Virus record (IMG/VR): IMGVR_UViG_3300006153_000006
Origin: a virus
Lineage: Duplodnaviria; Heunggongvirae; Uroviricota; Caudoviricetes
Direction: 5' to 3' (one strand)
DNA: 64,000 bases
The notes under the pieces were generated by a model, which saw only the letters and a program-made list of their open reading frames with translations, had not been told where the DNA came from and did no database searches. The position numbers and the translations under genes are program-made. The first letter of the stretch is position 1; the number at the start of each line of letters is the position of its first letter. Positions 21,078 to 59,583 of the stretch are shown in pieces.

Positions 21078-21095
21078 GGAACATACCTCCTACTG

Positions 21096-21530
21096 TTATG
21101 TAGAAGCCTTTGCGTTCAACGTAGTTGCCGCCTTCCATATACGGAACAGAGATTCCGGATCGAGGAAAGCAATGGCGGATGTGGCCAGAAGGTTTGCCTC
21201 TGTAACACGCTTCATATCTTCATCAGACAGCCTGGTCAGAAAGCGTCCAACACGCTCCTTGGACATTTTCTCGGGGTTTTCACAGAGAACCATACTGTCT
21301 TTTGCCAGACCTCCGGCAGAGGCCCGTATAACGACATGGGTTGGCTGCCCGGATTTCTTTATGGCGCTCGTCAACGGCAGAGCGATGATATTCGGGCTGT
21401 GCGCGTTGCCGACATTATTCTGAAACACCAGACCAGGACGCAGCCCGTTCTGCTCGCTTCCGCTTCCTGTGAAGTTCATCAGGTATATTTCTCCGATTTT
21501 TGGTGAGAACCCTGATCTTTGCCGATCCAA
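21096..21530 (-). CDS. MazF/PemK-family endoribonuclease toxin
   Basis: GEIYLMNF ... RPGLVFQNN ... IIALPLTS ... PTHVVI matches the PemK/MazF fold signature. Confidence 0.8.
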   Translation of the reverse strand: MDRQRSGFSPKIGEIYLMNFTGSGSEQNGLRPGLVFQNNVGNAHSPNIIALPLTSAIKKSGQPTHVVIRASAGGLAKDSMVLCENPEKMSKERVGRFLTRLSDEDMKRVTEANLLATSAIAFLDPESLFRIWKAATTLNAKAST

Positions 21531-26996: not shown

Positions 26997-27883
26997 TTTT
27001 CACACATCCTTTCGTAGCACTCAATCACGTTCTGCATCAGCATGGCCACCGTCATGGGGCCAACGCCGCCGGGAACGGGAGTGTATGCGTAAGCCTGCTC
27101 ATAAAGTGCGGGATCAAAATCTCCGCAGAGTTTCCCATCTTTGCCCCGGTTCATGCCAACATCGACCAGCACCTTATCAGAGAGGTCAAGGCCGAAGTCG
27201 TAGACCTTGCGTTCTGTGAGAATGCCGCGACACCCCGTGGCCGACACGATAATATCTGCCATTCGTACCGAATTGATAAAGGTTTCATTCAGTGTTTTAC
27301 TGTGGCACAGGATGACCGTGGCATTCCGCTGTTCAAACATAGCGGCAAGCGGTCTACCCACAATATTGCTTCGTCCGACAATGCAGACGCACTTCTCGGC
27401 TATGTCAATTCCATAGGCATCGAGAAGCTTTATGATCCCCTTTGGAGTACAAGGATAATTGAGCGGTTCTTTCCCCGAAAAAAGAGCGGCGGTATTGTAT
27501 GACGACACAAACCCATCCACATCTATGATGGCGAGATCGCGCATTATATTGCTCATTGGAAGAGAGTCGATATCCGCGTTGCCGGTGATCGGCAACTGAT
27601 AGATTGTCGGGATGATTTCATCGAAAAACACTTTTTCTGCGTCTTCATCTCTCAGATAGTCGAAGTGATTAACAACGACTTCAATGCCGATCTCCCCCGC
27701 TCTCTTGACCTTATTGCGAACATAGACCTGCCCGGCCTTGTTGTCGCCCGTTGTTACGATCCTCAGCTTGGGAATAACGCCCTTCTTCTTCAGCTCCGAA
27801 CATCTGTCAAAAAGAGTGTCACAAATTTTCTCCGCTAATACTTTTCCGTTAAGTTCCACTGGCCGCACCCCCAATAATCTCAT
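26990..27883 (-). CDS. folD: Bifunctional methylenetetrahydrofolate dehydrogenase/cyclohydrolase
   Basis: 297 aa with the FolD two-domain pattern (YVRNKVK, PGGVGPMT). Confidence 0.8.
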   Translation of the reverse strand: MRLLGVRPVELNGKVLAEKICDTLFDRCSELKKKGVIPKLRIVTTGDNKAGQVYVRNKVKRAGEIGIEVVVNHFDYLRDEDAEKVFFDEIIPTIYQLPITGNADIDSLPMSNIMRDLAIIDVDGFVSSYNTAALFSGKEPLNYPCTPKGIIKLLDAYGIDIAEKCVCIVGRSNIVGRPLAAMFEQRNATVILCHSKTLNETFINSVRMADIIVSATGCRGILTERKVYDFGLDLSDKVLVDVGMNRGKDGKLCGDFDPALYEQAYAYTPVPGGVGPMTVAMLMQNVIECYERMCEKC

Positions 27884-28412
27884 CCAATGTTCTCGGCGTA
27901 TAATCCATGTATGGCATCATGGCGCCAACGTTGAACATCTTACATGGCTTATCGTACAATTCCTTCATAAGGAACTTGTCGTGTTCCATCATCATATACT
28001 CAAACGAATTATGTACATGACCATAGAGATGGTACCATCCGTAATAATGGTTCTTAAAACAAGGAATTGGATAGTGACACAATACAATGCGCCTGTCCCC
28101 ATCAACGATTTCCATATACTCGTCGATTTTTACGAAGTGCTCTTTGAACTGAGCGCTGTCCACCCTGTCGTGGTTGCCCTTGATAAGAAATTTCTCCCCA
28201 GCAAGAGAGTCCAGAACCGGAATGGCCTCACTCTCTTTGCACCAGAACATATCGCCGAGCACATAGACGATATCGCCCGGGCTGACCACGCTGTTCCACC
28301 TGTCGATCAGCGCCTGGTTCATCTCTTCCAAAGATGTGAACGGGCGGTCATCAAACGCCAAGCAGTTGTTGTGGCCGTAGTGCCAGTCAGAGATGTAGAA
28401 CTTCTTTTGCAT
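27849..28412 (-). CDS. Calcineurin-like metallophosphoesterase
   Basis: DWHYGH, GDMF, GNHD and HVH motifs. Confidence 0.75.
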   Translation of the reverse strand: MQKKFYISDWHYGHNNCLAFDDRPFTSLEEMNQALIDRWNSVVSPGDIVYVLGDMFWCKESEAIPVLDSLAGEKFLIKGNHDRVDSAQFKEHFVKIDEYMEIVDGDRRIVLCHYPIPCFKNHYYGWYHLYGHVHNSFEYMMMEHDKFLMKELYDKPCKMFNVGAMMPYMDYTPRTLDEIIGGAASGT

Positions 28413-28902
28413 TGATATCACTCCTGTGTTTTGGAGAAAACTCCCCGAATATTTCAGCCTCTTTCGCAAGCCTGGCAACAACAGCCTCCTCTTTACTCTT
28501 GAAACGGCCTATGTAAATACGCCTGTGGTCACACATGATGTTCGCCACCCACCTATCCCGTCCGGCCTCATAGTAGACACCGGCAATACCGGATTTGTTG
28601 GAAGAAAACAGCGGCCTGTTCATGTTGTTCTCAGACCTGCTGCACAGGCGAAGGTTTTGTTTTCTGTTATCTGCCTTATTTTGGTTGATATGGTCTACAA
28701 CAAGACCTTGCGGTGCGTGCATGATCTCTCTGTGAAACATAAGAAAGCATAACTTCCCGTTAAATAGGTAACTGCTGGCAAGATACCCATCCTTATCCTT
28801 ATACCATGTGCGTCCTTTGATAAGCCAAAGATCGTCCAAGTCGAACAGAAACTCAGTCCCTTTAACGGTGAGCGAGCCATACGTTTCGTGAAGATCAAGC
28901 AC
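28387..28902 (-). CDS. HNH homing endonuclease with AP2 DNA-binding domain
   Basis: HINQNKADNRKQNLRLCSRSENN HNH motif plus an AP2-like segment (GVYYEAGRDRWVANI ... YIGRF). Confidence 0.8.
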   Translation of the reverse strand: MLDLHETYGSLTVKGTEFLFDLDDLWLIKGRTWYKDKDGYLASSYLFNGKLCFLMFHREIMHAPQGLVVDHINQNKADNRKQNLRLCSRSENNMNRPLFSSNKSGIAGVYYEAGRDRWVANIMCDHRRIYIGRFKSKEEAVVARLAKEAEIFGEFSPKHRSDINAKEVLHL

Positions 28903-30253
28903 CGTCCGTCATCCTCTCTTTGAGAAACTCCATCAGGTCATCGTGGTTGTTGGTAACCTCTTCGTTCATCACAGCGATAAGGCAGTCGTTGAGCAGTGCT
29001 CCGACCATCTTACCTTCCGGGATACCGAGAGACATGACATCATCGCCGTTAATGGCAATGTCTTTTACCGAGAAGCAGTCCTCTTGCTCCACTACCTCTT
29101 TGAAAATGATACCAAGATCGTAGAGCCGACGAAGCCGGGACTCCTGCGTTCCTTCCGCATGAGCCATAATGTCCGCGAGCCTGATTTTCAGAAGCCTTCC
29201 AAATTGCTCAGGGCCGATCTTATGGAGCATCCGGCGAACCACACGCTTTGTCGGCTCCAGCACAGCATCGTGTACACCGATCAGCTCCGCCACGTTATAG
29301 ACGATCTGATTGTTAAATCGCAGGCGGCGCAAAACGCATGAGCTGAGCTGTGAAGATACGTCAGCGTGGCCATAGAAGTGCCCACCCTTCTCGTCCTCCG
29401 TATAACAAGCCGGCTTCCCGACATCGTGGAGAAGGAGCGCAAGTTTTACTGTGATGTCCTTGCCGGTATAATTGGCGACAGCGTGGGCGATATGGTCATA
29501 GACTGTATATTGGTGGAACTTGTTGTTCTGCTCGAACCCAACACAGAATTTCAACTCCGGAATAATGGCGCAGACCACATCTTTATAGTCGAGCAAGATC
29601 TGCAAAACTCCATCGCCCAGCAAGAGCTTGCAAAGCTCTGACGCGATCCGCTCTGCGGACACATTCTGAAGAAGATCTACGTTTCTGTGGATAGAGTCCG
29701 CCGTATTCGTGTCGATGATAAAACCATAGTTTGCTGCAAAGCGAATGGCCCTCAGAAGCCTTAGAGCGTCTTCTCCGAAGCGTTCGTCAGGGCTTCCGAC
29801 ACAAGATATTACTTTCCTTTCAAGGTCTCTGAGGCCACCGTATGGATCAATAAGACCCGCTTCTTTACTGTACGCCATGGCGTTGACGGTAAAGTCGCGC
29901 CTCGCCAAATCCTCCGCAATATTGGAGACGAACTCCACGCTGTCCGGGTGTCGGCCATCGGAATAATCGCCGTCCTTTCGGAACGTCGTAACCTCATAGG
30001 GGACATTTCTTTCGAGGACTGTGACAGTTCCGTGCTTCATACCCGTCTCTATCACGTCGTGGTCTGCAAACAGTGTCTCGACTTCCGCCGGAGTGGCGGA
30101 GGTACAGATATCCCAATCCTTCGGCTCGCGACCAAGGAGACTGTCCCGCACACAGCCGCCAACCACATACGCCTCATATCCGGCGGCGTGGAGTTTATCC
30201 AGTATGGCGGACGCTCCATCGGGTATCTCAATCTTATTTCTCATACGCCACAC
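28895..30253 (-). CDS. cca: CCA-adding tRNA nucleotidyltransferase with HD domain
   Basis: N-terminal GGCVRD ... DWD polymerase-beta-type motif and HD phosphohydrolase motifs (HD ... GK). Confidence 0.85.
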   Translation of the reverse strand: MWRMRNKIEIPDGASAILDKLHAAGYEAYVVGGCVRDSLLGREPKDWDICTSATPAEVETLFADHDVIETGMKHGTVTVLERNVPYEVTTFRKDGDYSDGRHPDSVEFVSNIAEDLARRDFTVNAMAYSKEAGLIDPYGGLRDLERKVISCVGSPDERFGEDALRLLRAIRFAANYGFIIDTNTADSIHRNVDLLQNVSAERIASELCKLLLGDGVLQILLDYKDVVCAIIPELKFCVGFEQNNKFHQYTVYDHIAHAVANYTGKDITVKLALLLHDVGKPACYTEDEKGGHFYGHADVSSQLSSCVLRRLRFNNQIVYNVAELIGVHDAVLEPTKRVVRRMLHKIGPEQFGRLLKIRLADIMAHAEGTQESRLRRLYDLGIIFKEVVEQEDCFSVKDIAINGDDVMSLGIPEGKMVGALLNDCLIAVMNEEVTNNHDDLMEFLKERMTDGA

Positions 30254-31269
30254 CTCAACGCTGTTTCGTTCACACTCATTACAAAATCGTTTACTTTTTT
30301 CATGTCCGGTGCGTCTGGAAGACTCGTATCCTCCGCCGCCTTCCGCATCTTGACCTCATACTCGTCCACCAGGCGAAAGAAGGCGTCGTCGTATGTACCG
30401 TCCTCATGCATATAGGCGCCGTTGCGGATACTCATGAGAAGGTCAAGGTCATCCCCGCGATAGGTCACAATATCACCCTTCTCCAGGATGTCGATACAGA
30501 TAAGGTATAGGCGGATGAGGTGCATGGCGTGTTTGTTTAGATGGTTATCGTCCTTTTTCTTATTCCTGTGGTTCAACCCCTTGTAGTCGGAGACGATATT
30601 GGAGAGGGTGTTCAGCATAACGCTGAAATCGCGCACCGGATACTTCTTGAGGTCAACATCACACAAGACCTCCACGTCAAGATCGTCCCGTTTGCTGTCC
30701 CCGATGGACAAAGAGACAGCCCCACCGTCGAAGTCGGAATACATCGTCTCAAAATGCTTGACGGCCCTTTCCATGGAGCCAAGCATCATACGTTCTCTGT
30801 CCGCCTGAGTCATCCGGTCTTTGGCAAGGGCGTTCTGAAGACGCCGAAGCTGCTGTGTTGCGTACCCACCAAAGGAATTGACCGCCCGGCGGGTAAGGAA
30901 CAGTTTTCTGTTCTCGATAACGCTTTTACCGATGTCCGTGATATAGAAATAATGCTCCGGCTTGCAGCCAAGCAGTTCGATCACGTTGGGGTTACAGTTC
31001 AGTAACAGCTGCACCAGTTTATTAAAGGAGTACACCGTCGTATCCGTCTCGGAATTGACGACCTGCTCGAAATTGGTAAGGCCGAGGAGGTCGCTCCTGC
31101 TGTTCAGAGCGCAGCCACGGACATCTACGTCAGATGAGGGGATATTTGTCCCGTATGCGTAGCTCCCTCCAAGAGTCAGGAAGATGATATTGTCGCCCAT
31201 GTGCTGATTAGTACGGAGGAAGTCATATTCCTGGCCGGAGACCATAGTTTTGATCTGTTCAAGGGTCAT
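30241..31269 (-). CDS. Polymerase-beta-superfamily nucleotidyltransferase
   Basis: GGSYAYG ... SDVDVRG (GS ... DxD) signature. Confidence 0.5.
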   Translation of the reverse strand: MTLEQIKTMVSGQEYDFLRTNQHMGDNIIFLTLGGSYAYGTNIPSSDVDVRGCALNSRSDLLGLTNFEQVVNSETDTTVYSFNKLVQLLLNCNPNVIELLGCKPEHYFYITDIGKSVIENRKLFLTRRAVNSFGGYATQQLRRLQNALAKDRMTQADRERMMLGSMERAVKHFETMYSDFDGGAVSLSIGDSKRDDLDVEVLCDVDLKKYPVRDFSVMLNTLSNIVSDYKGLNHRNKKKDDNHLNKHAMHLIRLYLICIDILEKGDIVTYRGDDLDLLMSIRNGAYMHEDGTYDDAFFRLVDEYEVKMRKAAEDTSLPDAPDMKKVNDFVMSVNETALRCGV

Positions 31270-31463
31270 GCCGCATCTCCTCCGTTTCCGAAATCATCCT
31301 CAAGGGCAAGTGTTACATGGTCTTGATAGTGGTCATTGTCAAACAGCGTAATCCTGAGATAGCTCTTCTCCGGATCGAAGTCAAGCTGGAGAGACGCGTT
31401 CTCATAACCCAACCGTTTGAGATCGATCTCCTTGTTTGTCAAAAATTCATACGGCATATCCAA
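31266..31463 (-). CDS. Hypothetical small protein
   Basis: ORF only. Confidence 0.2.
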   Translation of the reverse strand: MDMPYEFLTNKEIDLKRLGYENASLQLDFDPEKSYLRITLFDNDHYQDHVTLALEDDFGNGGDAA

Positions 31464-31469
31464 TGCTCC

Positions 31470-31970
31470 TCACTGTTCGACTTCATTTTTGTTGTTCCAA
31501 TCCAGCTTCCAATGCAGTTCTTCAGCCTTCATAAACTCCAACAAGGTAAAGCCCACTGTTGTATTACATTTGATAAGGTGATCTGCAAGATGCCCAACAT
31601 TGGACTCATCGTCCAGAATGATAAAGACATCTACCTCCGGGTGTTCATCCAGCCACATCTGGATCTCGTCGCCACGACGGCTGCCATGCGTACCTGGAAG
31701 GTTCGGAGTTTTCCCGAGGATCTCGATACCATCCCGTAGTCCGCCGTTCAACAGACACTCGCGGTAGTTCTCTCTGTTTCTCCATGAGCTCGACACAACG
31801 ATGCTGTACCCGTACTTCTGGCAGAACTCAGACACCCACTGGACGCACTGGAAATTGTTGACCTTGTTGTCTTGGGGGAAATTGTATGTACACTTCTCCC
31901 CCGTCTCGTCCCACATGGGCGTGTTGACTACTCCGTCATAGTCGAGAAAAAGCACATTCACTGAGCCCAC
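31470..31970 (-). CDS. HAD-family phosphatase (polynucleotide 3'-phosphatase-like)
   Basis: LFLDYDGVVN DxDGV motif; sits between the nucleotidyltransferase and the RNA ligase. Confidence 0.5.
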   Translation of the reverse strand: MGSVNVLFLDYDGVVNTPMWDETGEKCTYNFPQDNKVNNFQCVQWVSEFCQKYGYSIVVSSSWRNRENYRECLLNGGLRDGIEILGKTPNLPGTHGSRRGDEIQMWLDEHPEVDVFIILDDESNVGHLADHLIKCNTTVGFTLLEFMKAEELHWKLDWNNKNEVEQ

Positions 31971-32066
31971 CTCCGCACAAATTGAATTTAATTAGCACTA
32001 TTAGCCTGCATAACGAAGCCTTAAACCCTTTACATGCCAAGGTTTTCGGCGGTGTTCAATCTTCAA

Positions 32067-33153
32067 TTACTCGTCATTTGCCAGAAGGAACTCCGGGTTA
32101 ATGACCTTGAAGCTGATGTTCTTTTCATAGTTGCGGATCACAACGCCCTCCCGTTTCTTCCCGGGAAGAAGAACGGTGTTGCCCTTGGCGAACTCCACCA
32201 TATCCGCAATGGTATCCTTGAGAACCATATCAGTTTCAACAACTGGAACGCTCATGATCCCGTACTTGGCAAGCGTCTCTGTCATTTCAAAGGTATTTAC
32301 TTTGCGTCCTTGACGAATAAGGTTGAAGGCATAAAGCTCATACTCTTTTCGCTCATACTTGTTCTTCTGGATGCCCGGGCCGATGATCTCGCCCTGAAGA
32401 ACGATAGTATCCGCATCGCCAATCAGAGAGCGAAGCACTTTTTCAATGTCATACTTCCGCGCCACCGTCCAGTAAGAGCTTCCGTCTGGCTTGCCAAGGC
32501 GAACATTTCTGGAACAGACACCGAACTCATACTTCTTTCGCCCAATCTTACGAAGGAAGAATGTGCCGGACTGGCCATCGACCTTCTCCGTCGCGGAGAA
32601 GTGTGTACCTGCCCCCCCGCTCCTGCTCGAACATGATCGTCTTGTTCTGGATACGCTCCTCGTCGGTCTTGACGATCCAATCCGGGAACCCACCATTCTT
32701 CTTTGGGCCAAGCGCGAGCTTTCGGAACCACGCAAATCGGCACATAAAACCAAATAGTTTCCCATGCTTCTTCTTATTCTTTGCCGCCAGAAGAGCCTGC
32801 TCCTGCTCCGCCTGCGGGTCGTACTTCTTGACACCGAGAACATCTGTTACGTCATCGTCAAGCTCATAGGTACGTCCATTTGGAAGGACTGACATCGGCA
32901 GGACAAGTCCCTGTGAGATCTGTCCGCGCAGCTTGATTGTTTTGACGCGGAACTTACGCTTCCGCAGGAACTCATATTCCGGTTTCTCCGGCATGATGGA
33001 ATCAACCTCAACATAGACGACCTTATCACCAATGTTGAACTCATCTTTCTGGATGACGCACTCCCATCCATCTACCTGTGCGACAACGATCTTGTCCGCC
33101 CCTTCAATAGGCCGAATATCCGCAATCTGTCGGACTGTTGCAAGTCTTCGCAT
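32067..33153 (-). CDS. ATP-dependent RNA ligase (KxDG), interrupted by a frameshift at a poly-G tract
   Basis: EKVDGQS nucleotidyltransferase motif I in the downstream frame, N-terminal domain in the upstream frame; the frames join at a C7 run (plus strand) near 32594-32600 (FEQERGG | AGTHFSATEKVDG). Confidence 0.7.
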
Positions 33154-33749: not shown

Positions 33750-34412
33750 TTACCACGAGCTTTGATAGTAGATCATTTGTGTTGTGAAATCTGTGGTTTC
33801 AAGTATGTCATTGATTGCTTTGACTGTGTTCTTGAGGTCTTCGACATAGTATTCATCATACTCCGTACCACCAAAGAAGAAACCCTCCTGCACCGGAAGC
33901 AGCTCCTCCGCAACCTCGGTATTGATAATCACCTTGCCGGGCTCCAGGATGTCATGCCATTCGCCGTTTTCAAGAACCTTTCCGTTCTTTACGATACCGT
34001 TTATCAGGATGCTCTCAGTCAACACTTTGAGGCAGGTATCCCGCAGGTTTTCAAGGTCTTTCTTTGTGACCTCACGGTGGTAGTCGCAGTCATCTACCCC
34101 CCCCTGTACGTTTTCAACAAACCATCCGTGGATTGCGTTTGCCTTTCTCCAATACGCGACCTCCTCCCCGATTGGCCGGTACCAATCGTTTTCGCCGCCA
34201 GAACGAAACTGTTTGTAGAACCCAATCGTCTCCTGATCGGGAAGCCTATCCGCAACATCTTCCCCACACCATTCTGCGAAGGAATTATTGAAACGTTCGC
34301 CCTCTTTGTTCTTCTTGTCAAGCCAGGACAGATAGCTTTCAATCGCATTGATCTCAGCTGGAATGGTTCCTCCATGACGAACATATCGATTGAGGTACAT
34401 ATCCAAACCCAC
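33750..34412 (-). CDS. Hypothetical protein
   Basis: 220 aa ORF; contains an in-frame G8 run encoding QGGV. Confidence 0.35.
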   Translation of the reverse strand: MGLDMYLNRYVRHGGTIPAEINAIESYLSWLDKKNKEGERFNNSFAEWCGEDVADRLPDQETIGFYKQFRSGGENDWYRPIGEEVAYWRKANAIHGWFVENVQGGVDDCDYHREVTKKDLENLRDTCLKVLTESILINGIVKNGKVLENGEWHDILEPGKVIINTEVAEELLPVQEGFFFGGTEYDEYYVEDLKNTVKAINDILETTDFTTQMIYYQSSW

Positions 34413-34454
34413 GATGTTCTACTTCCTTTCAAATATGTAGTCATATAAAAAACT

Positions 34455-34490
34455 TGTTTACCCCATATCGGATAAACAAGTTGCAGTAAA
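34455..34490 (-). terminator. Rho-independent terminator following ncRNA A
   Basis: 10-bp stem AACTTGTTTA / TAAACAAGTT followed by U6 on the minus strand. Confidence 0.5.
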
Positions 34491-34499
34491 TAATAAATA

Positions 34500-34774
34500 T
34501 GCGGGTGAGGATTTGCACCTCACATAGCTCCACTCCATACTGGCGACCGCTTCGGTCGCACAAGGGCTAACGTGTTCACCTTGTTCTGCTGGATGACCAC
34601 TGCTTGCGTTTAGCCGGGTCTACTTTTCACGTCATTCTCACCGACATCACAGCAGTCCGGGCCGTAGAGCCTTACCTTTAAGCGTCTACTATTGCCGTAT
34701 GGGAGACTTACTGGCATTTCTGCTTGCTCCGTTGGCTTTACCAGGACGAAATGCCTGTCTATTCCGCCACCGCA
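34500..34774 (-). ncRNA. tRNA-like structured ncRNA, copy A
   Basis: 275-nt non-coding unit. Its 5' 17 nt and 3' 26 nt (minus sense UGCGGUGGCGGAAUAGA ... AUGUGAGGUGCAAAUCCUCACCCGCA) are identical to the unit at 58653-58885. The 3' end forms a T-arm-like hairpin plus acceptor-like CCCGCA. It has its own terminator. Confidence 0.4.
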
Positions 34775-34790
34775 TATTTAATTTCTAAAT

Positions 34791-37674: not shown

Positions 37675-38532
37675 TTACTGCGTTCCTCCGATGGTCACAA
37701 ACGGATTGACAGTAGAACCCATAACCTGTGGCCACTCACCATTCCATTTCTCCACCATCTGAAGCTGTGTATATTCCGGACTGGAGGAAAGCTGTTCCTG
37801 GATGACCTGGATCGCATATGCCTCAGCGTCGGCAGCCAGCTTCTTGGCATCAGCTTCCGCCTGAGCCGCAATAAGGAGCTGCTTTGCCTCCTCTTCTTTT
37901 GCGACGGTCTCGTTCTGTTTGCGGAGTGCCTCCTGTTCGGCGGCAACCTTTGCCCGAATCACATCCTCGAAGCTATCCTCGAAGTCGAGGTTCTTAATGT
38001 TGAAGGCATGGATATTGATGCCATATGTGGCAAAGGACTCACGGAGTTCCGCCTCCACCTGCTCCTGAAGCATAGAGCGATTCTGCACAAGCTCTTCCGC
38101 CTTATATTTACCAGTCGCATTCTTGGTCACAGAGTTTACCTGCGGCACAATCAGCTTGGACTCAACATTCCCAAGGCCAATCGTCTGGATGATATTTTCC
38201 AGTTGTGACACATCATACGACCAGTTGACAGTAAACTCGATCCCCTCCACTGTCTGCGTGTCACGAGTGTAAGCGGAAATCGTACCTTCGTATACCTGCT
38301 CACGAGTATCGACTGTTTCGATGCGCTGGACAAACGGGGCGTGCCATTTCCAACCAGGTGTGAGCCCGGTCTCCACGACCTCGCCAAACTGATACTTTAT
38401 GCCGACATATCCCTGCTGGATAGTCTTATGGCCAAAGAGCAGACAAATCAGAGTGATGATTGCCAACACCACGAGCACTACCGCGATGATCGGCGTATAA
38501 TTACGAACCCTTCTATTCGATCCTTCCATAGT
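37675..38532 (-). CDS. SPFH/Band-7 (stomatin/HflC-like) membrane protein
   Basis: N-terminal TM helix followed by an SPFH core and a C-terminal coiled coil (EEAKQLLIAAQAEADAKK). A poly-C7/poly-A7 tract lies just upstream of the RBS. Confidence 0.7.
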   Translation of the reverse strand, partial: TMEGSNRRVRNYTPIIAVVLVVLAIITLICLLFGHKTIQQGYVGIKYQFGEVVETGLTPGWKWHAPFVQRIETVDTREQVYEGTISAYTRDTQTVEGIEFTVNWSYDVSQLENIIQTIGLGNVESKLIVPQVNSVTKNATGKYKAEELVQNRSMLQEQVEAELRESFATYGINIHAFNIKNLDFEDSFEDVIRAKVAAEQEALRKQNETVAKEEEAKQLLIAAQAEADAKKLAADAEAYAIQVIQEQLSSSPEYTQLQMVEKWNGEWPQVMGSTVNPFVTIGGTQ

Positions 38533-38599
38533 GTCAAGACTCCTTTGTATATATTTTTTTGGGGGGGTGATTTGAGCGGACAAAGTAAACAGCCTGCGT

Positions 38600-39058
38600 C
38601 TACTTACGGTACAATGTGAGATGGCAGTCGGAGAATATATTAACAAGCACATCAACGACTGCGCCCCAATCTCCGCCGCCAAGACCACATCCGATGCGAT
38701 ACGGCATGGCTATTGTCTCCCCTGGCTTAACCCTGTTTTTCAGGGTGTAAAAGCACTTCTTTAGTGCTTCTATATCTGTATGCACTGCGCCATCGCGGCC
38801 ATAGGAGAATTGCCCGAACATATTGACGACCTTTGTTTTGTCTGTCACTTTTACAAACTGTATTTTACCGAGGAGTTCCTCTCTGCCGTGTTCTTTGGAA
38901 TACTTCTCAACGGCGTTGTGATAGCTTTGGTAAACGCATGGCCATTTCGTGCGGATCTGTTTCGCCACGCCGCTTCCCATAACGCCCATGCAGTTCACCT
39001 GGTGGCAGATATATTCGGCGGTAGCGTTCAGAAGGTCGCCGTCAACAATACGGATCAT
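38600..39058 (-). CDS. Macro-domain (ADP-ribose-binding/processing) protein
   Basis: IVDGDLLNA ... HQVNCMGVMGSGVA ... GCGLGGGDW macro-domain motifs. Confidence 0.75.
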   Translation of the reverse strand: MIRIVDGDLLNATAEYICHQVNCMGVMGSGVAKQIRTKWPCVYQSYHNAVEKYSKEHGREELLGKIQFVKVTDKTKVVNMFGQFSYGRDGAVHTDIEALKKCFYTLKNRVKPGETIAMPYRIGCGLGGGDWGAVVDVLVNIFSDCHLTLYRK

Positions 39059-39958: not shown

Positions 39959-40744
39959 TTATCCCTCGTTGTATGGGAGCTTGGGAGAGATCAGCTCGCG
40001 GTTTTGGAGGAGGCGGAACGATGGCATAGGCTCCAGTTTATGTCTGTTCCTTGCGTGCAAATCATCAATGCGCCTTTTGGTCGCAACGTCAGCACACTCA
40101 CCGGTGGCAATATAGTTGTCCAAAACGGCGTAAGTGAATCCAAGATTATCCTCGTCAGATTTTCCACACAATCCATCTGACGGAATCTTGCTCACAAGCT
40201 CGTTGGGGAGACCGAGCTCCTGCCCGATCTGCAAAACCTCATTCACCAGAAGGTTGGAAAGCGGGCTGAAATCGCCTGCGCTGTCGCCGAATTTTGTGGA
40301 ATACCCGACATAATCCTCTGAAAGATTGCAAGTATTTGCCACACGCCCGCCGTTCGGGAGCGACTGAGCAACCGCATAGAGGATCGACATACGGATACGG
40401 GCCGGCAGGTTGACGATGGCCTGCTCGTTTGGCTCGCATCCGACCCGTGACAGCCTGTCATGTATAGCTTCAACCGCATCGCCGATATTTACTGTAATAC
40501 TGCGAATACCAAGCATCTCCACCAGCTTTATGCTGTCGTTTATGTCAGCCTGATAGCAGTTCGGCATCAAAACACCGAAGACCCTATCCTTTCCAAGGGC
40601 CTCGACACATAGGGCGGCGACCACACTGGAGTCCTTCCCTCCGGAGATACCCACCACGGCGGAACACTCTGGCCCGTTCTTTACAAAATAATTGCGAATC
40701 CAGTTGATAATGTCGTGTATTGTTTCATTTGGATTTTTCAACAT
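39959..40744 (-). CDS. nadE: NH3-dependent NAD+ synthetase
   Basis: VVGISGGKDSSVVAAL PP-loop and NadE-like length and pattern. Confidence 0.8.
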   Translation of the reverse strand: MLKNPNETIHDIINWIRNYFVKNGPECSAVVGISGGKDSSVVAALCVEALGKDRVFGVLMPNCYQADINDSIKLVEMLGIRSITVNIGDAVEAIHDRLSRVGCEPNEQAIVNLPARIRMSILYAVAQSLPNGGRVANTCNLSEDYVGYSTKFGDSAGDFSPLSNLLVNEVLQIGQELGLPNELVSKIPSDGLCGKSDEDNLGFTYAVLDNYIATGECADVATKRRIDDLHARNRHKLEPMPSFRLLQNRELISPKLPYNEG

Positions 40745-40773
40745 ACTGTTCACCGTCCTATTCTTATTTGGAT

Positions 40774-40808
40774 ATAAAAAAAACCACCGAGAGCCAAGGC
40801 CTCGGTGG
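40774..40808 (-). terminator. Rho-independent terminator
   Basis: CCACCGAGGCC ... GGCTCTCGGTGG hairpin followed by U8 on the minus strand. Confidence 0.5.
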
Positions 40809-40820
40809 TAGTCTATTCGG

Positions 40821-41312
40821 TCATTCACTCCTGAGCGGAACAAGGATCTTTCTAAACCCAAGCGTTACCCTTGTTTTATGGTTAAGCAGCGGATAAATCT
40901 CAACATCGTCTGCATACTGGGAAGCTCGCAGGAACCACTGCTTGTGGCAAAAATCAATATCGGCGGCTTCCATTTCTATAAACCCAATATCCGGAGCAAG
41001 ATCATCTCTTTTGCAAACAAAATTCAGGCTTTCTTCCTCGACTCTGATCCCGTTCTTCACAATGGCAGATGCAATGCTGATACGCCTTACAGCTTCTGGG
41101 TTGAGAATATACACCTCATTCCTCGGCAAGGACTTCATCTGTTCAATCAGCGCATCGACTTCAGCAAAGTCCTCGTCGTCAAACTCTTCCTTATCGTATT
41201 CAAAATCCTGCAAACTTGTCACCTCTTTCCGTTGTTCTGCTCCCTGATTATAGCATTGTTGATGGAAAAATGAAAGATTAAAATTCCCCGTTGTAAAGAT
41301 TGGCGCGGACAT
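40821..41312 (-). CDS. Hypothetical protein (start uncertain)
   Basis: ORF overlaps the upstream gene end; an internal start is likely. Confidence 0.25.
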   Translation of the reverse strand: MSAPIFTTGNFNLSFFHQQCYNQGAEQRKEVTSLQDFEYDKEEFDDEDFAEVDALIEQMKSLPRNEVYILNPEAVRRISIASAIVKNGIRVEEESLNFVCKRDDLAPDIGFIEMEAADIDFCHKQWFLRASQYADDVEIYPLLNHKTRVTLGFRKILVPLRSE

Positions 41313-42783
41313 TTTTCAGCGAGTAGAGCTTGGTAAAGTTTCCATCTTTGAACACCGTGATGAGTTCGTTCCCGCTCTGTGCCTGCTGCCATGTAAGGCC
41401 GTCCTCGTAGGCGTAGCCCGTATCCGTCTTGAACACCCGGCAACAGCCGCGCTGCGACTTCTTGAAGTGCCCGGAGTCTGTCTTGGGGTTCTTGAAGATC
41501 ATGATGGGCTTACCATCTTTATCTTCCGCATAGGTCGCCTTGACGGCGATACCAAAGGTGTCGCGGGTATAGGGGCGATAAGTCGGGCGGATCTTACCGG
41601 TGTCCCAGTCCTCCTCAAAGTCCTCCAGACACTCCATGGAGAAAGAACCCACGCCAAGAGCGACATTGCTGACGGCGAACCCGTTGTTTTCCAGAATCTG
41701 ATAGATACGCTGGCAGCGCTGAGGCGTAATACTGTCGCCGTAGAGAGCCTTGACGTGGGGGTTCAGCACCTTAAATCCCTTGGCATTTACACTGCCGCCA
41801 AAGATGTCCCACAGCTTGAACACGGTTTTGGTGACCACATCCACCGGGTCACCGCTGTCTCCACGGATCGAAATACAGCCTTCGTGGGCCAGGATCTCGT
41901 CTTTGAGCTGTGGAAGAATATTCTCCACCAGGTTCCAGTAATCATAGCTGTCACTGACCACCGAGAAGCTCTTGTGCGGGTAGATCTCCGTCAACAAGCG
42001 GCGCATGTGCGTCACCTCATCGCTGTCAATGGCGAAGTTGGAACACATCACGCTGTGCTCCGTGGACAAGGCGCCGTACGCCACAGGCTCTTCATCGGCG
42101 CGGCACGCATAGTTCTTTTCCAGCCAGAGAATGGCCGGAACAGTCGCCGTGTTCAGGAAACTCAGGCAGAAGGCCGCCGAGCTCTTTGTGGCGCTTTCTA
42201 CGCTCTCCTGTCCGCGCATAGAAAAATCGCCAAGGAGCCTCGCCGGAACAACATCGTCATCACAAGTGCGCTTCGCATACTCGTTGACGATCTTCCGATA
42301 GCGATAGCCAACCTCGGCGGATACCTGTGTGTGCCACATGGAGCAAGAAAGCATCGTTTCAATGCTGTTCACCAACCACACGAAGTCAGGATGTGTGTTG
42401 GATATCTCGATTTGCGGAACATGAATGTCCGTCCGTACGCCCTCCGGGACAGCCCGGATCTCCAACGGCAAATAGCCCAGATCGTGCAGGCCTTTCAGTC
42501 TGTCGTGGCCAACACCGTCTGTTCCGATGGTAGCTCCGAGAACCCTCGTGTACTCATCCCAGACCTGATCGAACGGAACGCCAAAGAAATACTCGTTAAA
42601 CGCTTCAATGAGGTACTCATTGATAAAAGCCTGAAGACCAAACAGCGTGACCTTATCGACATCTTCAAGCCTCGACATTCTCGGCGTATAATAGGAGGCC
42701 ATCTTGGTCAGGCCGACTGGGTATTGCTCGGCATGTGCTGTCTTATAAAAGTCCAAGCAAAGCAACGGATTGTAACGGATCAT
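41278..42783 (-). CDS. Nicotinamide phosphoribosyltransferase-family enzyme (NadV/Namat-like)
   Basis: LDFYKTAHAEQYP, LPLEIRAVPEG, VVSDSYD and IRGDSGDPVD correspond closely to NAMPT signature segments. Confidence 0.85.
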   Translation of the reverse strand: MIRYNPLLCLDFYKTAHAEQYPVGLTKMASYYTPRMSRLEDVDKVTLFGLQAFINEYLIEAFNEYFFGVPFDQVWDEYTRVLGATIGTDGVGHDRLKGLHDLGYLPLEIRAVPEGVRTDIHVPQIEISNTHPDFVWLVNSIETMLSCSMWHTQVSAEVGYRYRKIVNEYAKRTCDDDVVPARLLGDFSMRGQESVESATKSSAAFCLSFLNTATVPAILWLEKNYACRADEEPVAYGALSTEHSVMCSNFAIDSDEVTHMRRLLTEIYPHKSFSVVSDSYDYWNLVENILPQLKDEILAHEGCISIRGDSGDPVDVVTKTVFKLWDIFGGSVNAKGFKVLNPHVKALYGDSITPQRCQRIYQILENNGFAVSNVALGVGSFSMECLEDFEEDWDTGKIRPTYRPYTRDTFGIAVKATYAEDKDGKPIMIFKNPKTDSGHFKKSQRGCCRVFKTDTGYAYEDGLTWQQAQSGNELITVFKDGNFTKLYSLKNVRANLYNGEF

Positions 42784-42784
42784 A

Positions 42785-42985
42785 TTAAAGCCTCCCATTC
42801 AACTTCTTTGCGAGATAAACAGCGAACGCAAACGGGGAAAGAGCGGGCCATAAAACGCCGACAAAAATGTAATCACCTACATCCACATACTCCGGGTACG
42901 TCCGGTTTTTCAGGTTCAAATAGTACAGCGTGAATGTGATAACAGCGCCTATGACAACATACAGGAAGACATACAGCAATATCAT
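42785..42985 (-). CDS. Small membrane protein
   Basis: 66 aa with two hydrophobic helices. Confidence 0.3.
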   Translation of the reverse strand: MILLYVFLYVVIGAVITFTLYYLNLKNRTYPEYVDVGDYIFVGVLWPALSPFAFAVYLAKKLNGRL

Positions 42986-45998: not shown

Positions 45999-46679
45999 TT
46001 AAAGCAGAGGAACCACCTTATTGTACAAAGCAACAAACTGCTCGTTTATTTGCCTATCAATATGATAATGACCAAAAAACCATCGCTTGAATGTAAGATC
46101 TTGCCTGACTCTTTCGTGAAAGCTCACGATCGGGTCGTTTTCGTACCATTCCGCGATAAACTGTTGTACACTTCTTGGCGCACAATGTGTAATGACATAG
46201 TCTACTTCCCAGTTGACGGCTTCGAGAGCTTGCACGGCGCGTTCCATCTCGTCATTGGACGGGATCTCCTGCGGCCACCACGAGATATGTTCTCTCCGCT
46301 GTGCCTTATCCACAGAGCGTGCACCACCCATCACGTAGATCTTCTTCCCGCCGATCGTTAAGACCTGTCCGCGCTCCAAATGATAGATGCTTTCGGTCAC
46401 CTGACGGACATAGCCGCCGAACATGGGAATGAGTTTCAACTCGCGAAGAATATCGAAGTTCTCGTGGTTACCGTCCACAAATAACGTGGTAAAGGGCTTG
46501 TTTGCCAGCCAATCCTGCCAGTACATTTCCCTTGCGGAACCATACCAGACCAGGCCGAAGTCGCCAGCGATTATTACATAGTCGCTTTTGCTCAACTCTT
46601 TCTGCTGTGGAAAATTCCTCGTATTCAGCTTGGAGATATCATAATCGGCGTGCGTATCGCCAGTTACATAGACCATACC
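45999..46679 (-). CDS. Calcineurin-like metallophosphoesterase
   Basis: VYVTGDTHADYD, GDFG, DGNHE and FGHYH motifs; the annotated 90-aa N-terminal extension is probably not translated. Confidence 0.7.
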   Translation of the reverse strand, partial: GMVYVTGDTHADYDISKLNTRNFPQQKELSKSDYVIIAGDFGLVWYGSAREMYWQDWLANKPFTTLFVDGNHENFDILRELKLIPMFGGYVRQVTESIYHLERGQVLTIGGKKIYVMGGARSVDKAQRREHISWWPQEIPSNDEMERAVQALEAVNWEVDYVITHCAPRSVQQFIAEWYENDPIVSFHERVRQDLTFKRWFFGHYHIDRQINEQFVALYNKVVPLL

Positions 46680-46696
46680 TTTTACTCCTTCAAAAA

Positions 46697-46986
46697 AATG
46701 TGATCTCATAGAGAATAATAGACATCTGGAGACGGAGTCTACGGCGTCTTGGATGTGTGGGAGCCGAGTCATGTCGGCGAACTGGTGTGCCATCCTGTTC
46801 TGATTTTGGTGCGAGATGTCTCGATTCTGGGGGTTTGCTGCGATCGGCATCGCGTATTTCCGTCGCCAATGACTCAGCGTTCGAGCTGGCGTGTTTGCGC
46901 AGCCTCCTGCTGCCCCGTCTTTCATCCAGCTATTTGTTACTTCTACCATCGGTGAGAAGCACCGCGAACGGTTATACATCACATTT
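46697..46986 (-). ncRNA. Structured intergenic element (b) with 9-bp terminal inverted repeats
   Basis: AAATGTGAT ... ATCACATTT termini. The 3' 55 bp is near-identical to element (d), and the central hairpin motif is shared with (a) and (c). Confidence 0.45.
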
Positions 46987-46995
46987 GTTTTGTAA

Positions 46996-48183
46996 TTATC
47001 TCAGGTCTTCCCTAATGCACGCTATGATATCTACGCCATACTTTTTGCTTGCATGTTCGACGATCTTGTCTATCACATCCTTTTCCACCATCCGGTAGTA
47101 GTTGTAATAGCCATCGAGCGTTCTGATATCGCCCGCCTCCCATGGTGTACCGTTTTTCCGGTCAAAGATGTAATTGTGGATCATATTCTGGAACTGCTGC
47201 TTCCGCCGGTACCCTATGGTAATATTGTTGTCCTTGTTGAGCATGACACCGAGGTTCCAGTTCCGCCCAGCAGAAGACCCATACCGTGTCTTTTTGACGT
47301 TCAATGAGAACGGCGCATGATACTCTTCCAGCGTCCTCAGCAACAGGTCTTGTACCTGCCAGATGTCGAATGCGTACCTGGATGAGATGATGAAATCGTC
47401 CGCATACCTGGTATATATCATCCTCTGCTTCAGCGGGGTCTCCTCGCCGTCAGCGCCGGTCAGAACACCGGCACGCTCAAACTCCATATACCTCAGCCTT
47501 TTGTTCAGGTTAAAGTCGATGGGGATCATCATGATGTTTGTAATCGTCGGGGACACCGGGGTGCCTTGAGGCAGACCCCCATTCAGAGTTGCAAGTTCAA
47601 GTGCCTTCTCAAGCTCAGCACGCCCTTCCTCTGTCCTAACGACCTCGCTGAACGGGAACACCATGCTGAACTGCTGCATCATAAACTCCAAAGTTGTGCT
47701 GCCAAAGAAATCATGGAGGTCAAACTTCCCAAACCAGCGGCTCTCGTTCTGCTGGTGACGCTTTACCGCATCAATGGTACAACGGCCCTTAATGTATGCA
47801 AACGCGGAGGTATGATAAAGGGCGTGAAAGTCCTCCTCAAAAATCAGCTTGAGCTGACGGAGCGCGTTCATCAATTCCGGCAGAGGCTCATCTATTTTGC
47901 GCAGACCACCGGACTTCTTTGGGATATGGAATGTATGGTACAAATCACTCCTCTTGGACTCTCTGAGCTTTTCAGTACCTGCATTGAACTCCTTCAGCTT
48001 TCTAACCAAGTAGCCAATATTGAGGCCATTTGTAAAGCGTTCGCTCACTTCCTCAACGGCATACGTTTTTGTGTTTCCTACACTTGTGTTATACGGTGCA
48101 TAATCAGAAAAGCTTTGCGAGATAAACTCTTCAAAAGTCATCTGATGATACATCGGAGATTGATGGACTGTAATGTACACCAC
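46996..48183 (-). CDS. Reverse transcriptase (retron/unknown-group type; QGxxxSP and YADD)
   Basis: RT motifs FHIPKKSGGLRKIDEP (1/2), GKFDLHDFFGST (A), LPQGTPVSP (4) and YTRYADDFII (C); GTG start with GGAGG RBS. Confidence 0.85.
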   Translation of the reverse strand: MVYITVHQSPMYHQMTFEEFISQSFSDYAPYNTSVGNTKTYAVEEVSERFTNGLNIGYLVRKLKEFNAGTEKLRESKRSDLYHTFHIPKKSGGLRKIDEPLPELMNALRQLKLIFEEDFHALYHTSAFAYIKGRCTIDAVKRHQQNESRWFGKFDLHDFFGSTTLEFMMQQFSMVFPFSEVVRTEEGRAELEKALELATLNGGLPQGTPVSPTITNIMMIPIDFNLNKRLRYMEFERAGVLTGADGEETPLKQRMIYTRYADDFIISSRYAFDIWQVQDLLLRTLEEYHAPFSLNVKKTRYGSSAGRNWNLGVMLNKDNNITIGYRRKQQFQNMIHNYIFDRKNGTPWEAGDIRTLDGYYNYYRMVEKDVIDKIVEHASKKYGVDIIACIREDLR

Positions 48184-57682: not shown

Positions 57683-57779
57683 TGGTGCTCAAGCAGGGAC
57701 TCGAACCCCAAACCTTACGCTAATCTGGCGCTAATACCGAGTATAGATCGGCTGCTCTACCGATTGAGCTACTTGAGCA
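57683..57779 (-). tRNA. Atypical tRNA-like gene (94-nt body, internal 7-nt direct duplication, anticodon loop UCUAUAC)
   Basis: Perfect 7-bp acceptor GCTCAAG/CTTGAGC plus CCA, canonical D-arm and T-loop TTCGAGT. The variable region is 26 nt and contains a CGCTAAT direct repeat. The anticodon would be UAU if the loop is read conventionally. Confidence 0.5.
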
Positions 57780-58612: not shown

Positions 58613-58652
58613 AATCTTACCCCCCTACCGAAGTGCTGTTTTATAAAGAATG

Positions 58653-58885
58653 TGCGGGTGAGGATTTGCACCTCACATGATGTGGATTATACCTGGCAGA
58701 CCCTCTGCGCACTGAGCTACTCCGCCCTGTCCCCCTTGCGGGAGCGCCGAGTGGGACTCGAACCCATGTCCACATCTATCTGGACTGCATCTTAGCGTTT
58801 ACTGTTGCGTGGGCTTCGATTACGAAACAACACGCTTTACTACTTGTCCAACATTCCTGCTGGAAGTATCTATTCCGCCACCGCA
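58653..58885 (-). ncRNA. tRNA-like structured ncRNA, copy B
   Basis: 233-nt unit with the same 5' 17 nt and 3' 26 nt as copy A and a different core. The core has a D-arm-like GUAGCUCAGUG and a second T-loop-like GGGUUCGAGUCCC. Confidence 0.4.
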
Positions 58886-59173
58886 CGAATTAACTGTGAC
58901 ATGGCTTTTGGAAGCCATCAAGAGCAAATGATGGAATGAGCCGCTCTTTGCCATCACTACAAGCACAAACTGCAATGCCAGGATCTTCAGTCCAACGCTT
59001 AAACTCTGCGGTATAGCTCGCATACCCGCTGGTCATTTTCCCGGAAAACCCGTTATACACGAAGTTTTTGACTCGCATCAAACTCACATCCATTCGTTTA
59101 TTTTTTTGCAGCACGCAAACCCCCTGAACGTACTGCTGCCGACTGCCCTTTTGTTTCCAGTCGGCTCCCCTCT

Positions 59174-59583
59174 TGGTGGAGGTGGGGGGAATCGAACCCC
59201 CGTCCAAAATCCCTACTCGCTCAAAACATTCTTACGCAATATCCATTTCTTCGTTATGCCTTGCGGCGGCTCGATTAGAAATAGCAAGAAACAGCCGGGG
59301 CGTACCAGCTCTGGTACTGCTTCCACCACTCGGTTTTATGGCAGCCGAGAACCACAAAGGTGCTGAGTCTATACATACCCACAACCTTTACCGGCCCAGC
59401 GAGGTCTGCTGTGGGAAGTTCGCCTTTGCTCAGGCGGCAGCTCCCTCAAGAGCGGCAATCAGAGCGGGGTGAACCATAACGATCTCAGTGTTATTGTTGG
59501 CATTTGTGTTTGTTGTCCCTTAAGGTGGTAACATCCCTGCGTGTTTTGAGTTATCAGAACCCTGTCGAAACCATTACACCCCC
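59174..59583 (-). ncRNA. ssrA: tmRNA (ssrA)
   Basis: 5' GGGGGUGUAAUGGUUUCGACAGGG matches the tmRNA 5' consensus. The 3' end GGACGGGGGUUCGAUUCCCCCCACCUCCACCA gives the T-arm, an acceptor with G3-U70 and encoded CCA. An internal ORF ending in alanines (ALIAALEGAAA) is a possible tag. Confidence 0.75.

Follow-up and report, generated by a model that had tools for sequence, protein, structure and literature searches.

Two tRNA-like units on the minus strand of the window

The DNA analysed here (the window) is a stretch of 64,000 nucleotides (nt) from a virus of the Caudoviricetes, IMG/VR record IMGVR_UViG_3300006153_000006. It carries two non-coding units, A and B, which an original prediction made from the sequence alone had described as a pair of RNAs resembling transfer RNA (tRNA), with identical termini and different cores. 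The 5' 17-mer TGCGGTGGCGGAATAGA is present exactly in both units, and their 3' ends are identical over 26 nt by direct reading. When the window was searched with up to three mismatches allowed, and with 25 of the 26 nt of the 3' block as pattern, each end was found twice, on the minus strand and at the positions first given, against 0.00 (5' 17-mer) and 0.18 (3' block) matches expected from shuffles. Read on the minus strand, A and B both start with UGCGGUGGCGGAAUAGA and finish with AUGUGAGGUGCAAAUCCUCACCCGCA. The lengths of 275 and 233 nt reported earlier are correct from identical end to identical end. At either end the functional unit extends 2-3 nt further (A, 34497-34776; B, 58650-58887), because the flanking bases pair and differ compensatorily between the copies: UAUGCGG/CCGCAUA in A and (C)GUGCGG/CCGCAC(A) in B. 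The transfer-messenger RNA (tmRNA) of the window is a separate gene at 59174-59583, as had been stated, and it lies, together with all tRNA genes of the window, on the same strand as the two units. The parts of the units are the following.

34497..34776 (-): unit A, the whole tRNA-like RNA gene of 280 nt, running from position 1 of the acceptor stem up to the discriminator U and delimited by the exact termini and by covariance model R1
34770..34776 (-): A, 5' strand of the acceptor stem, UAUGCGG, pairing with 34498-34504; U8 and G9 lie at 34768-34769
34764..34767 (-): A, 5' strand of the D stem, GCGG, of which GCG pairs with CGC at 34682-34684; compensatory variants CUG/CAG and GUG/CAC occur in the family
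34685..34763 (-): A, D loop with insert, in the order AAUAG, A, hairpin 1 (CAGG..CCUG), GUAAAG, hairpin 2 (GCC..GGC), AAUAG, UAGA
34682..34684 (-): A, 3' strand of the D stem, CGC, the end of GUAGACGC
34524..34681 (-): A, variable domain of 158 nt in place of the anticodon and variable arms, with stub UUAAAGGUAA and closing helix GGCUCUAC/GUGGAGCU, ending in AU
34505..34523 (-): A, T-like arm GUGAGG-UGCAAAU-CCUCAC with a 6-bp stem and a 7-nt loop; the stem covaries and the loop is nearly invariant
34498-34504 (-): A, 3' strand of the acceptor stem, CCGCAUA, with the discriminator U at 34497; CCA is not encoded
34451..34482 (-): intrinsic terminator, 15 nt downstream of A, a 13-bp stem with a T run
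58650..58887 (-): unit B, the whole tRNA-like RNA gene, 238 nt, beginning 2 nt past the stop of an upstream open reading frame (ORF) of ~68 amino acids (aa)
58875..58887 (-): B, 5' acceptor strand CGUGCGG, U8, G9 and 5' strand of the D stem, GCGG; 1:72 is a C-A mismatch, so the acceptor stem has 6 bp
58795..58874 (-): B, D loop with insert, with hairpin 1 (UACUU..AAGUA), GUAAAG, hairpin 2 (GCGUG..CACGC) and AACA-GUAAA; 3' strand of the D stem, CGC, at 58795-58797
58677..58794 (-): B, variable domain of 118 nt, with stub UAA and closing helix GAUG../..CAUC, ending in AU
58658-58676 (-): B, T-like arm, followed by the 3' acceptor strand CCGCACA at 58651-58657 and the discriminator U at 58650; CCA is not encoded
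58744..58765 (-): inner segment GGGUUCGAGUCCCACUCGGCGC of the variable domain of B, a canonical T arm and 3' acceptor strand of a true tRNA-Leu

A T arm at the common 3' end had been predicted with a 5-bp stem. The arm is present, but its stem has 6 bp (GUGAGG/CCUCAC) and the sixth pair covaries in the family. Likewise, the sequences of the cores are indeed unrelated, but the interiors as a whole are not: both copies have a 3' D-arm strand (GUAGACGC in A and GUAAACGC in B), a two-hairpin D-loop insert with a GUAAAG linker, and a closed domain ending in AU. The z-scores of the minimum free energy (MFE) are -3.07 for A and -4.28 for B. Imposing the fold that is consistent with the family costs 4-5 kcal/mol relative to the MFE structure (A, -91.6 versus -95.8 kcal/mol; B, -86.5 versus -91.2 kcal/mol). 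Covariance model R1 matched B over its full length with 57 bits (E = 7e-12) and A in both halves. The predicted terminator behind copy A is real (34482-34451) and is the sole terminator found there, outside the unit. The shared ends themselves were called as neither promoter nor terminator, and a generic repeat of that kind, which the original prediction had named as the observation that would speak against it, does not account for ends that form covarying helices.

Conserved body and exchangeable modules of the family

Constant termini around variable cores recur in many phages, as had been anticipated. Exact scans of IMG/VR with either terminus found at least 117 phage contigs each, and at least 140 distinct units, mostly of 83 to ~270 nt, were recognized among the IMG/VR matches listed, the opposite end being matched approximately. 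The counts of 140 units and of 134 parsed units used below rest on these listed matches. One scan of 185,579 species-representative genomes found the 3' block in 20 of them; 18 of the 20 loci have a full unit, and nearly all belong to gut or rumen Clostridia (Oscillospiraceae, Lachnospiraceae, Acutalibacteraceae, Flavonifractor, Ruminococcus). Searches of GenBank phages by blastn with the whole window units gave no match, while the conserved 3' block alone found members in cultured phages: a 30-nt query taken from it matched 49 and 91 GenBank phage records. Full units were confirmed with model R1, at 45-72 bits, in ten cultured phages, namely Bacillus SPbetaL1, Leuconostoc LN34, Enterococcus EFDG1, Listeria B054 and LP-101, Lactobacillus LpeD, Weissella PWc, Paenibacillus API480, Lactiplantibacillus H1-Guo and Dulem virus 33. 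Phage phi3T and other SPbeta-like phages are included on their match to the 30-nt query. The site of the unit in the records of cultured phages is unannotated or lies under a small hypothetical ORF. Rfam 15 was searched with the whole window at gathering score, with both units at E <= 10 and with 24 family loci at E <= 1, and no Rfam family covers the units, in agreement with the idea of a new family of tRNA-like non-coding RNAs. Units A and B thus belong to a large uncatalogued family in Firmicutes phages, laboratory phages included.

The short members show the common plan: a 7-nt acceptor strand, U8, G9, GCGG-AAUAGGUAGA-CGC, a variable region, AU, a 6-bp stem with a UGCAAAU loop, a second 7-nt acceptor strand and one base. 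Model R1 was built from 28 short members, and two non-overlapping sets of its matches were aligned, A2 with 65 distinct sequences and A3 with 99 distinct sequences including cultured phages and genomes. Standard pairs fill 96.2% (A2) and 96.8% (A3) of the paired cells, 14 of 16 and 12 of 16 pairs are compensatory, and none of 500 shuffles equalled the covariation score in either set. When the 3' partner was slid by 1-3 columns as a control, pairing fell to only 35-52% in both sets. The acceptor-stem helix covaries in all seven pairs in A2 and in six of seven in A3. The sixth pair of the T stem occurs as GC, AU and CG; since it covaries, the acceptor/T stack is 7/6 and not the canonical 7/5.

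Several single bases are conserved at positions that the search pattern did not force. U8, G9, A14, A15 and A17 were present in all 87 units examined; of 45 units, 42-43 have the AU that precedes the T stem and ~45 the UGCAAAU loop. G18 was found in 78 of the 87 units; the D loops of the window copies are split by the insert and retain a GGUAAAG motif. The T loop of the family has G at position 55, and the base corresponding to C56 is G or A in some members (UGGAAAU, UGAAAAU). The discriminator of the 140 listed units is A in 78, U in 45, C in 10 and G in 7; the two window copies have U. The covariance model gives 22.9 bits to a true tRNA-Leu, compared with 30-93 bits for family members. At locus L135 the T loop of two of three tandem units is the canonical UUCAAAU and not UGCAAAU, and these units may be intermediates between true tRNA-Leu and the family.

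No anticodon is left in this body. The shortest members (83-110 nt, with intact D loop) have no anticodon stem with a 7-nt loop; a 10-12-nt stub and a closed variable domain stand in its place. The stub after the D stem is typically UUA-N4-6-UAA and is usually followed by a helix that closes the variable domain and finishes directly before the AU. In terms of tRNA-Leu, the anticodon arm has shrunk to a stub and the variable arm is hugely expanded. With default settings ARAGORN called a tRNA within one of the 140 listed units, a tRNA-Thr inside an over-long parse; with introns permitted it gave one or two calls among the 140 at the default threshold and scattered, inconsistent isotypes when relaxed. 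The Rfam tRNA model RF00005 had no match on either unit at gathering score or E <= 10, nor on the 24 family loci at E <= 1. Of the earlier suggestion that these are tRNA genes with large insertions, the origin holds, as seen from the tRNA-Leu D arm and the D-loop insert, but the 83-110-nt members without an anticodon arm do not allow a decodable tRNA.

The variable domain ranges from 33 to 200 nt and falls into 82 sequence clusters among the 134 parsed units. A D-loop insert is present in 59 of these units and forms 27 clusters, 21 of which follow the plan A, hairpin 1, GUAAAG, hairpin 2, AAUAG; hairpin 1 has at least 3 bp in 20 of the 21, with diverse sequences. The modules combine freely: one variable domain occurs with no insert or with various inserts, and one insert with up to five variable domains. 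Motifs common to the variable domains were not detected beyond the parsing spill-over of GUAGACGC. The two window variable domains have no relatives among the 134 parsed units, and the modules of the window copies are singletons. A search of IMG/VR for further relatives by exact 18-mers returned one match that is a genuine tRNA-Leu and another that is a chance match in coding DNA; neither was retained.

Copy B holds the canonical T-arm-like hairpin GGGUUCGAGUCCC and the GUAGCUCAGUG segment that had been noted in it. The region of GGGUUCGAGUCCCACUCGGCGC is identical over 20 nt to a genuine tRNA-Leu in IMG/VR locus L226, and is followed by a GNRA-capped hairpin and then by the partly complementary GCGCAGA downstream. 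Judged from its sequence, this arrangement suggests a permuted tRNA module like that of YrlA, nested within the tRNA-like body. ARAGORN called the permuted module at a very relaxed threshold only, with a call that spans an artificial junction, and the inner segment has a weak partial match to the T arm of the Rfam tmRNA model. T-arm-like hairpins were also observed in the variable domains of loci L038, L153 and L183.

Genomic setting and neighbouring genes

The units are placed and oriented like tRNA genes. All 191 tRNAs found within 3 kb share their strand, and in 14 cases a unit lies at most 13 nt from a tRNA. Locus L163 has the order tRNA-Ser, 1 nt, unit, 2 nt, tRNA-Gln, and loci L082 and L102 the order tRNA-Gln, 9-10 nt, unit, 9 nt, tRNA-Glu; with such tight spacing the unit is bounded just as a tRNA gene is. 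At L135 (3559-3926), L140 (705-1302) and L244 (4430-6475), two to four different units follow each other in tandem. In phage EFDG1 (L311) the unit begins where the phage tmRNA (976-1326) ends, and unit B lies ~290 nt downstream of the window tmRNA. The window phage and EFDG1 thus both carry tmRNAs, that of the window with the tag peptide ANNNTEIVMVHPALIAALEGAAA. CCA is encoded in only 4 of the 140 listed units, compared with 96 of 128 neighbouring tRNAs and seven of the eight window tRNAs. The large lytic phages carry their units within tRNA arrays, distant from late operons. Small temperate phages have the unit after a late activator (RinA, ArpU or DUF1492) and ahead of the HNH and terminase genes, a place where tRNAs are also kept.

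Downstream of unit A and its terminator, the window phage encodes an RNA-repair cluster (27849-32843, minus strand) that includes a CCA-adding enzyme, as the original prediction had assumed for this enzyme. The genes were assigned by Pfam as follows.

27849-28481 (-): metallophosphoesterase of the RNA-repair cluster
28895..30253 (-): phage CCA-adding enzyme with an HD domain; its role here is putative
30241-31269 (-): RlaP nucleotidyltransferase
31470-31970 (-): HAD_SAK, the HAD domain of 'Swiss-army-knife' repair proteins
32067-32843 (-): RNA ligase

A link of this cluster to the units may be supposed. In tblastn searches each of the window neighbours and RNA-repair proteins was found at 0-3 of 225 family loci, and RNA-repair genes are present at ~8 of the 225, so the family as a whole does not show the association. 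Between unit A and the cluster, just downstream of the unit, lies a 220-aa phrog_7971 protein without Pfam match (33750-34412, minus strand). Three of the 18 loci with a phrog_7971 homologue that were scanned with the model have an adjoining unit, the window counted; the other two, L244 (4001-4423) and L238 (4001-4555), belong to large phages as well.

The window phage is large and also encodes a Pol III alpha subunit, DnaB, a primase, NrdD, ThyX, NAD-salvage enzymes, integrases, an MrpR-like repressor domain, a MazF-like toxin and a reverse transcriptase. A Tn916-type integrase lies at 2818-4083 and a Band-7/SPFH protein at 37675-38688. The protein with the MrpR N-terminal core-binding domain, of the SPbeta master-repressor type, adjoins the PemK/MazF-family toxin (20130-21530, minus strand). 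A NAMPT-like phosphoribosyltransferase and an NAD synthase are encoded at 39959-42798 (minus strand), and these genes for NAD synthesis and salvage may counter NAD-depleting defences. The reverse transcriptase (RVT_1, 395 aa), with a calcineurin-like phosphoesterase immediately downstream (45999-48183, minus strand), stands beside two tRNA-Thr genes. The tRNA-Ile(UAU) at 57683-57778 (minus strand, 96 nt, CCA encoded) has a stem-loop of ~25 nt in its variable region, a class-II-like long arm, although tRNAs of this type normally belong to class I. Other non-coding RNAs were found as well: a RAGATH-16 RNA in the window (63767-63837, minus strand; 79 bits, above gathering score), a skipping-rope RNA in Dulem virus 33 (L310, 1640-1709), where it lies 110 nt downstream of the unit, and an int-alpA RNA in L087. 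The units therefore share neighbourhoods with other orphan phage RNAs.

Interpretation and comparison with known systems

The results are, on balance, best explained if each unit is the gene of a non-decoding, tRNA-Leu-derived RNA that mimics a tRNA, is matured by the tRNA pathway and displays a variable cargo, an explanation to which we give slightly better than even chances. The chassis, as the constant body may be called, keeps the upper body of a tRNA with its corner, and it is these parts that RNase P, RNase Z and the CCA-adding enzyme read. The conserved features, namely the acceptor helix, the core of the D arm, the T hairpin and the GG in the D loop or its insert, are the ones recognized by tRNA-processing enzymes, and the decoding parts are lost. 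In Firmicutes, tRNA precursors without CCA are cut by RNase Z after the discriminator and are then extended by the CCA-adding enzyme. The units would be transcribed with the phage tRNAs or like them, and RNase P would cut the 5' end; since CCA is not encoded, RNase Z would be expected to cut after the discriminator, and CCA could then be added by the host enzyme or by that of the phage. The product would be a stable L-shaped RNA, unable to read codons, with the variable domain as exchangeable cargo. In this reading it would be the cargo, rather than the chassis, that gives the RNA its specific function.

Several observations weigh against this explanation. The terminal helix can be extended past 7 bp in about half of the units, and position N-1 pairs with N73 in 86 of the 140 listed; such pairing is unusual for RNase P substrates, though a single subgroup of close relatives accounts for much of it. 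In 20-25% of the units position 1:72 lacks a pair. With G in place of U55 and the changes at 'C56', the expected partner of G19, it is possible that the canonical elbow contacts do not form, and a bulged GNRA-type loop is another way to read the T hairpin. Shuffled sequence is only slightly less stable than the variable domains (mean z = -0.6), so that these could be neutral filler rather than a structured cargo. All-against-all clustering of the ORFs within 2 kb around 158 contexts gave no conserved protein partner, only terminase, portal and small regulators. Finally, the placement in temperate phages between late activator and terminase genes also fits a role in cis.

Since the chassis derives specifically from tRNA-Leu, the RNA might be a mimic that can be aminoacylated: CCA would be added, leucyl-tRNA synthetase (LeuRS) would charge it with leucine, and it would act outside decoding as an aminoacyl donor, as a sink for LeuRS or for the sensing of uncharged tRNA, or as a tag. 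By analogy with the biology of tRNA-Sec, its 13-bp acceptor/T stack would bar it from EF-Tu and the ribosome. The E. coli LeuRS is reported to need A73, A15-U48, G18G19, A20a and the contacts of the D and T loops, but neither the anticodon nor the long variable arm, and tRNA-Leu without the anticodon and variable arms is still charged (PMC9976931). Retained in the family are U8, A14, A15, G18G19 (where the D loop is intact), U54, A58 and, at the place of U48, a U; more than half of the listed units have an A discriminator, and a CCA-adding enzyme is encoded by the phage. We nevertheless regard charging as unlikely: the discriminator varies and is U in both window copies although A73 is reported to be crucial, G replaces U55 although the G18:U55 contact is reported to be important (PMC9976931), the G18G19 region is split by the D-loop insert in 59 of 134 units, and CCA is almost never encoded although the neighbouring tRNAs encode it. 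A similarly small chance is given to a function of the chassis as bait, in which the acceptor/T/D body would titrate a host factor that attacks or senses tRNA (acceptor-end toxins, tRNA-binding immune sensors and degradosome nucleases are candidates) or would work with the RNA-repair enzymes of the phage, the variable domain being largely irrelevant. Unit A heads the cluster of RNA ligase, HAD_SAK, RlaP, CCA-adding enzyme and phosphoesterase, homologues of RlaP and of the CCA enzyme occur at two other family loci (L119 and L185), several copies per phage would raise the dosage, and strong purifying selection on the chassis contrasts with the weak thermodynamic signal of the variable domains. 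But only ~8 of the 225 family loci have RNA-repair genes and most carriers are small temperate phages without them, an RNA without anticodon loop is no bait for anticodon nucleases, and large variable domains with a kept closing helix would be hard to explain if they were irrelevant.

A cis-acting element, in which the tRNA-like fold would be a processing or 'punctuation' site, a stabiliser or an antiterminator where the late operon begins or between two cistrons, seems rather improbable. It would suit the temperate phages, where the unit follows directly on RinA, ArpU or DUF1492 and precedes the HNH and terminase genes, and unit B, which begins 2 nt after an ORF stop and has neither promoter nor terminator of its own. 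It does not suit the tRNA arrays of the large lytic phages, the tandem arrays of different units, or unit A with its own terminator; moreover, processing by RNase P and RNase Z would free the RNA anyway, so that the cis role, like the bait and repair role, possibly overlaps in part with a processed, cargo-bearing RNA. Two further explanations can be regarded as effectively excluded. Group I introns occur in bacterial tRNA-Leu genes, and this, together with the D arm that is nearly identical to that of tRNA-Leu and the repeated AAUAG that flanks the D-loop insert, would be in line with true tRNA-Leu genes that are interrupted, in the D loop and the anticodon region, by introns or mobile insertions whose removal would yield a decoding tRNA. 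This is very improbable, since the 83-110-nt members with intact D loop still lack the 7-nt anticodon loop, the Rfam group I and group II intron models are silent on both units at E <= 10, intron-aware ARAGORN gave only the few calls and random isotypes mentioned above, and the inserts (33-200 nt) are too small and, with 82 clusters, too diverse for a common catalytic core. Least probable of all is an explanation at the DNA level, be it a promoter or terminator repeat, an attP site, a fragment of a tRNA gene or a chance match. Phage integrases do often target tRNA-Leu genes and the window encodes integrases, but the window has just two copies where none is expected by chance, the two ends are never found apart or out of order, compensatory changes mark three covarying helices across ~160 distinct sequences, and the strand is always that of the tRNAs.

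A more general role of the cargo-bearing tRNA mimic is proposed tentatively. The leucine-tRNA chassis could be a general display platform of Firmicutes phages that hijacks the tRNA maturation machinery of the host, and perhaps also CCA addition or leucylation, to form stable RNAs, and presents 82 or more types of swappable effector domains, for instance decoys or sponges for immune or RNA-binding proteins of the host, with modules exchanged in the course of an arms race. If true, phages would possess in it a natural equivalent of the engineered tRNA scaffold, and it would form a new class of phage RNA for counter-defence or host control. The family is abundant in gut and rumen phages and is also present in cultured, genetically tractable ones, dairy phages of Lactobacillus and Leuconostoc among them, so that expression, processing, charging and phenotype are directly testable. 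The 'tRNA gene' regions of phages contain genes that tRNA finders overlook. The units also offer a natural test of which tRNA features are sufficient for RNase P, RNase Z, the CCA enzyme and LeuRS, and possibly natural chassis designs for the expression of structured RNAs in Gram-positive bacteria.

Mimicry of tRNA as such is already known from tmRNA, Y RNAs and viral tRNA-like structures. The combination of a near-perfect tRNA-Leu upper body, complete loss of the anticodon and exchange of large domains at two sites was not found in Rfam 15 or in the searched literature. Full-text searches, motif sequences included, gave no description, and an anonymous listing among 10,006 candidate phage RNAs (PMC10690425) is possible. 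One of the nearest known RNAs is the bacterial class II tRNA-Leu, with which the family shares the 7-bp acceptor stem, U8, G9, A14, A15, U54, A58, C61, the location in tRNA arrays and a nearly identical D arm (UGGCGGAAU.GGUAGACGC in the family and UGGCGGAAUUGGCAGACGC in phage and host tRNA-Leu from the same loci); the closing helix sits where the long variable arm lies. It differs from tRNA-Leu in the missing anticodon stem-loop, the 6-bp T stem, the UGCAAAU loop, the variable discriminator, the absence of an encoded CCA and the optional D-loop inserts.

As in tmRNA (RF00023), which is phage-encoded here and in EFDG1, both ends of the RNA form an acceptor/T domain around a large domain that is not tRNA. 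tmRNA has no real D arm and is marked by the G3-U70 alanine identity, pseudoknots, a tag reading frame and an encoded CCA, whereas the units have a full tRNA-Leu D arm, no G3-U70 (pair 3:70 is U-A, A-U or C-G) and no conserved ORF; the sole Rfam tmRNA match on them is a 15-nt T-arm fragment of 5.7 bits. YrlA, a bacterial Y RNA, mimics the acceptor, D and T body of a tRNA without an anticodon and is reported to be sometimes phage-encoded and located next to RNA-repair genes (PMC4201824). The units resemble it (RF02553) in the tRNA body without anticodon, and the suggested inner module of unit B would have the same permuted layout. The ends of YrlA form the Ro-binding stem that replaces the anticodon stem, its acceptor being capped, and the ends of the units form the acceptor stem. 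The earlier Y-RNA-like reading is not supported: the Rfam models RF02553 and RF00019 had no match on the units, which have no long Ro-binding terminal stem. A TROVE/Rsr domain was absent from the 48 window ORFs scanned, in a scan that was not exhaustive. The allo-tRNAs (8/4 and 9/3; PMC5389517) and the tRNA-Other of B. cereus are irregular tRNA-like genes in Clostridia, Bacilli and their phages, sometimes polycistronic, with a changed acceptor/T geometry and with suspected regulatory roles. They have an anticodon arm and a 12-bp acceptor/T stack, in contrast to the family with its 7/6 stack of 13 bp and no anticodon. Rfam matches to skipping-rope, RAGATH and DUF3800 motifs, GOLLD, ROOL or HEARO did not overlap any unit.

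Two further systems carry a payload on a tRNA. In the man-made 'tRNA scaffold' the tRNA body recruits processing enzymes and protects an RNA payload that replaces the anticodon arm, and in the tRNA-miRNA genes of the herpesvirus MHV68, a eukaryotic virus, the payload lies 3' of the tRNA and is released by tRNA-processing enzymes. The units are like the scaffold in that the variable domain takes the place of the anticodon arm, and unlike MHV68 in that it is internal and not 3'. To our knowledge, no internal, swappable payload on a tRNA body has been described from bacteria or phages in nature. The distinctive feature of the family is the combinatorial exchange of modules at two defined sites of a non-coding RNA that mimics tRNA.

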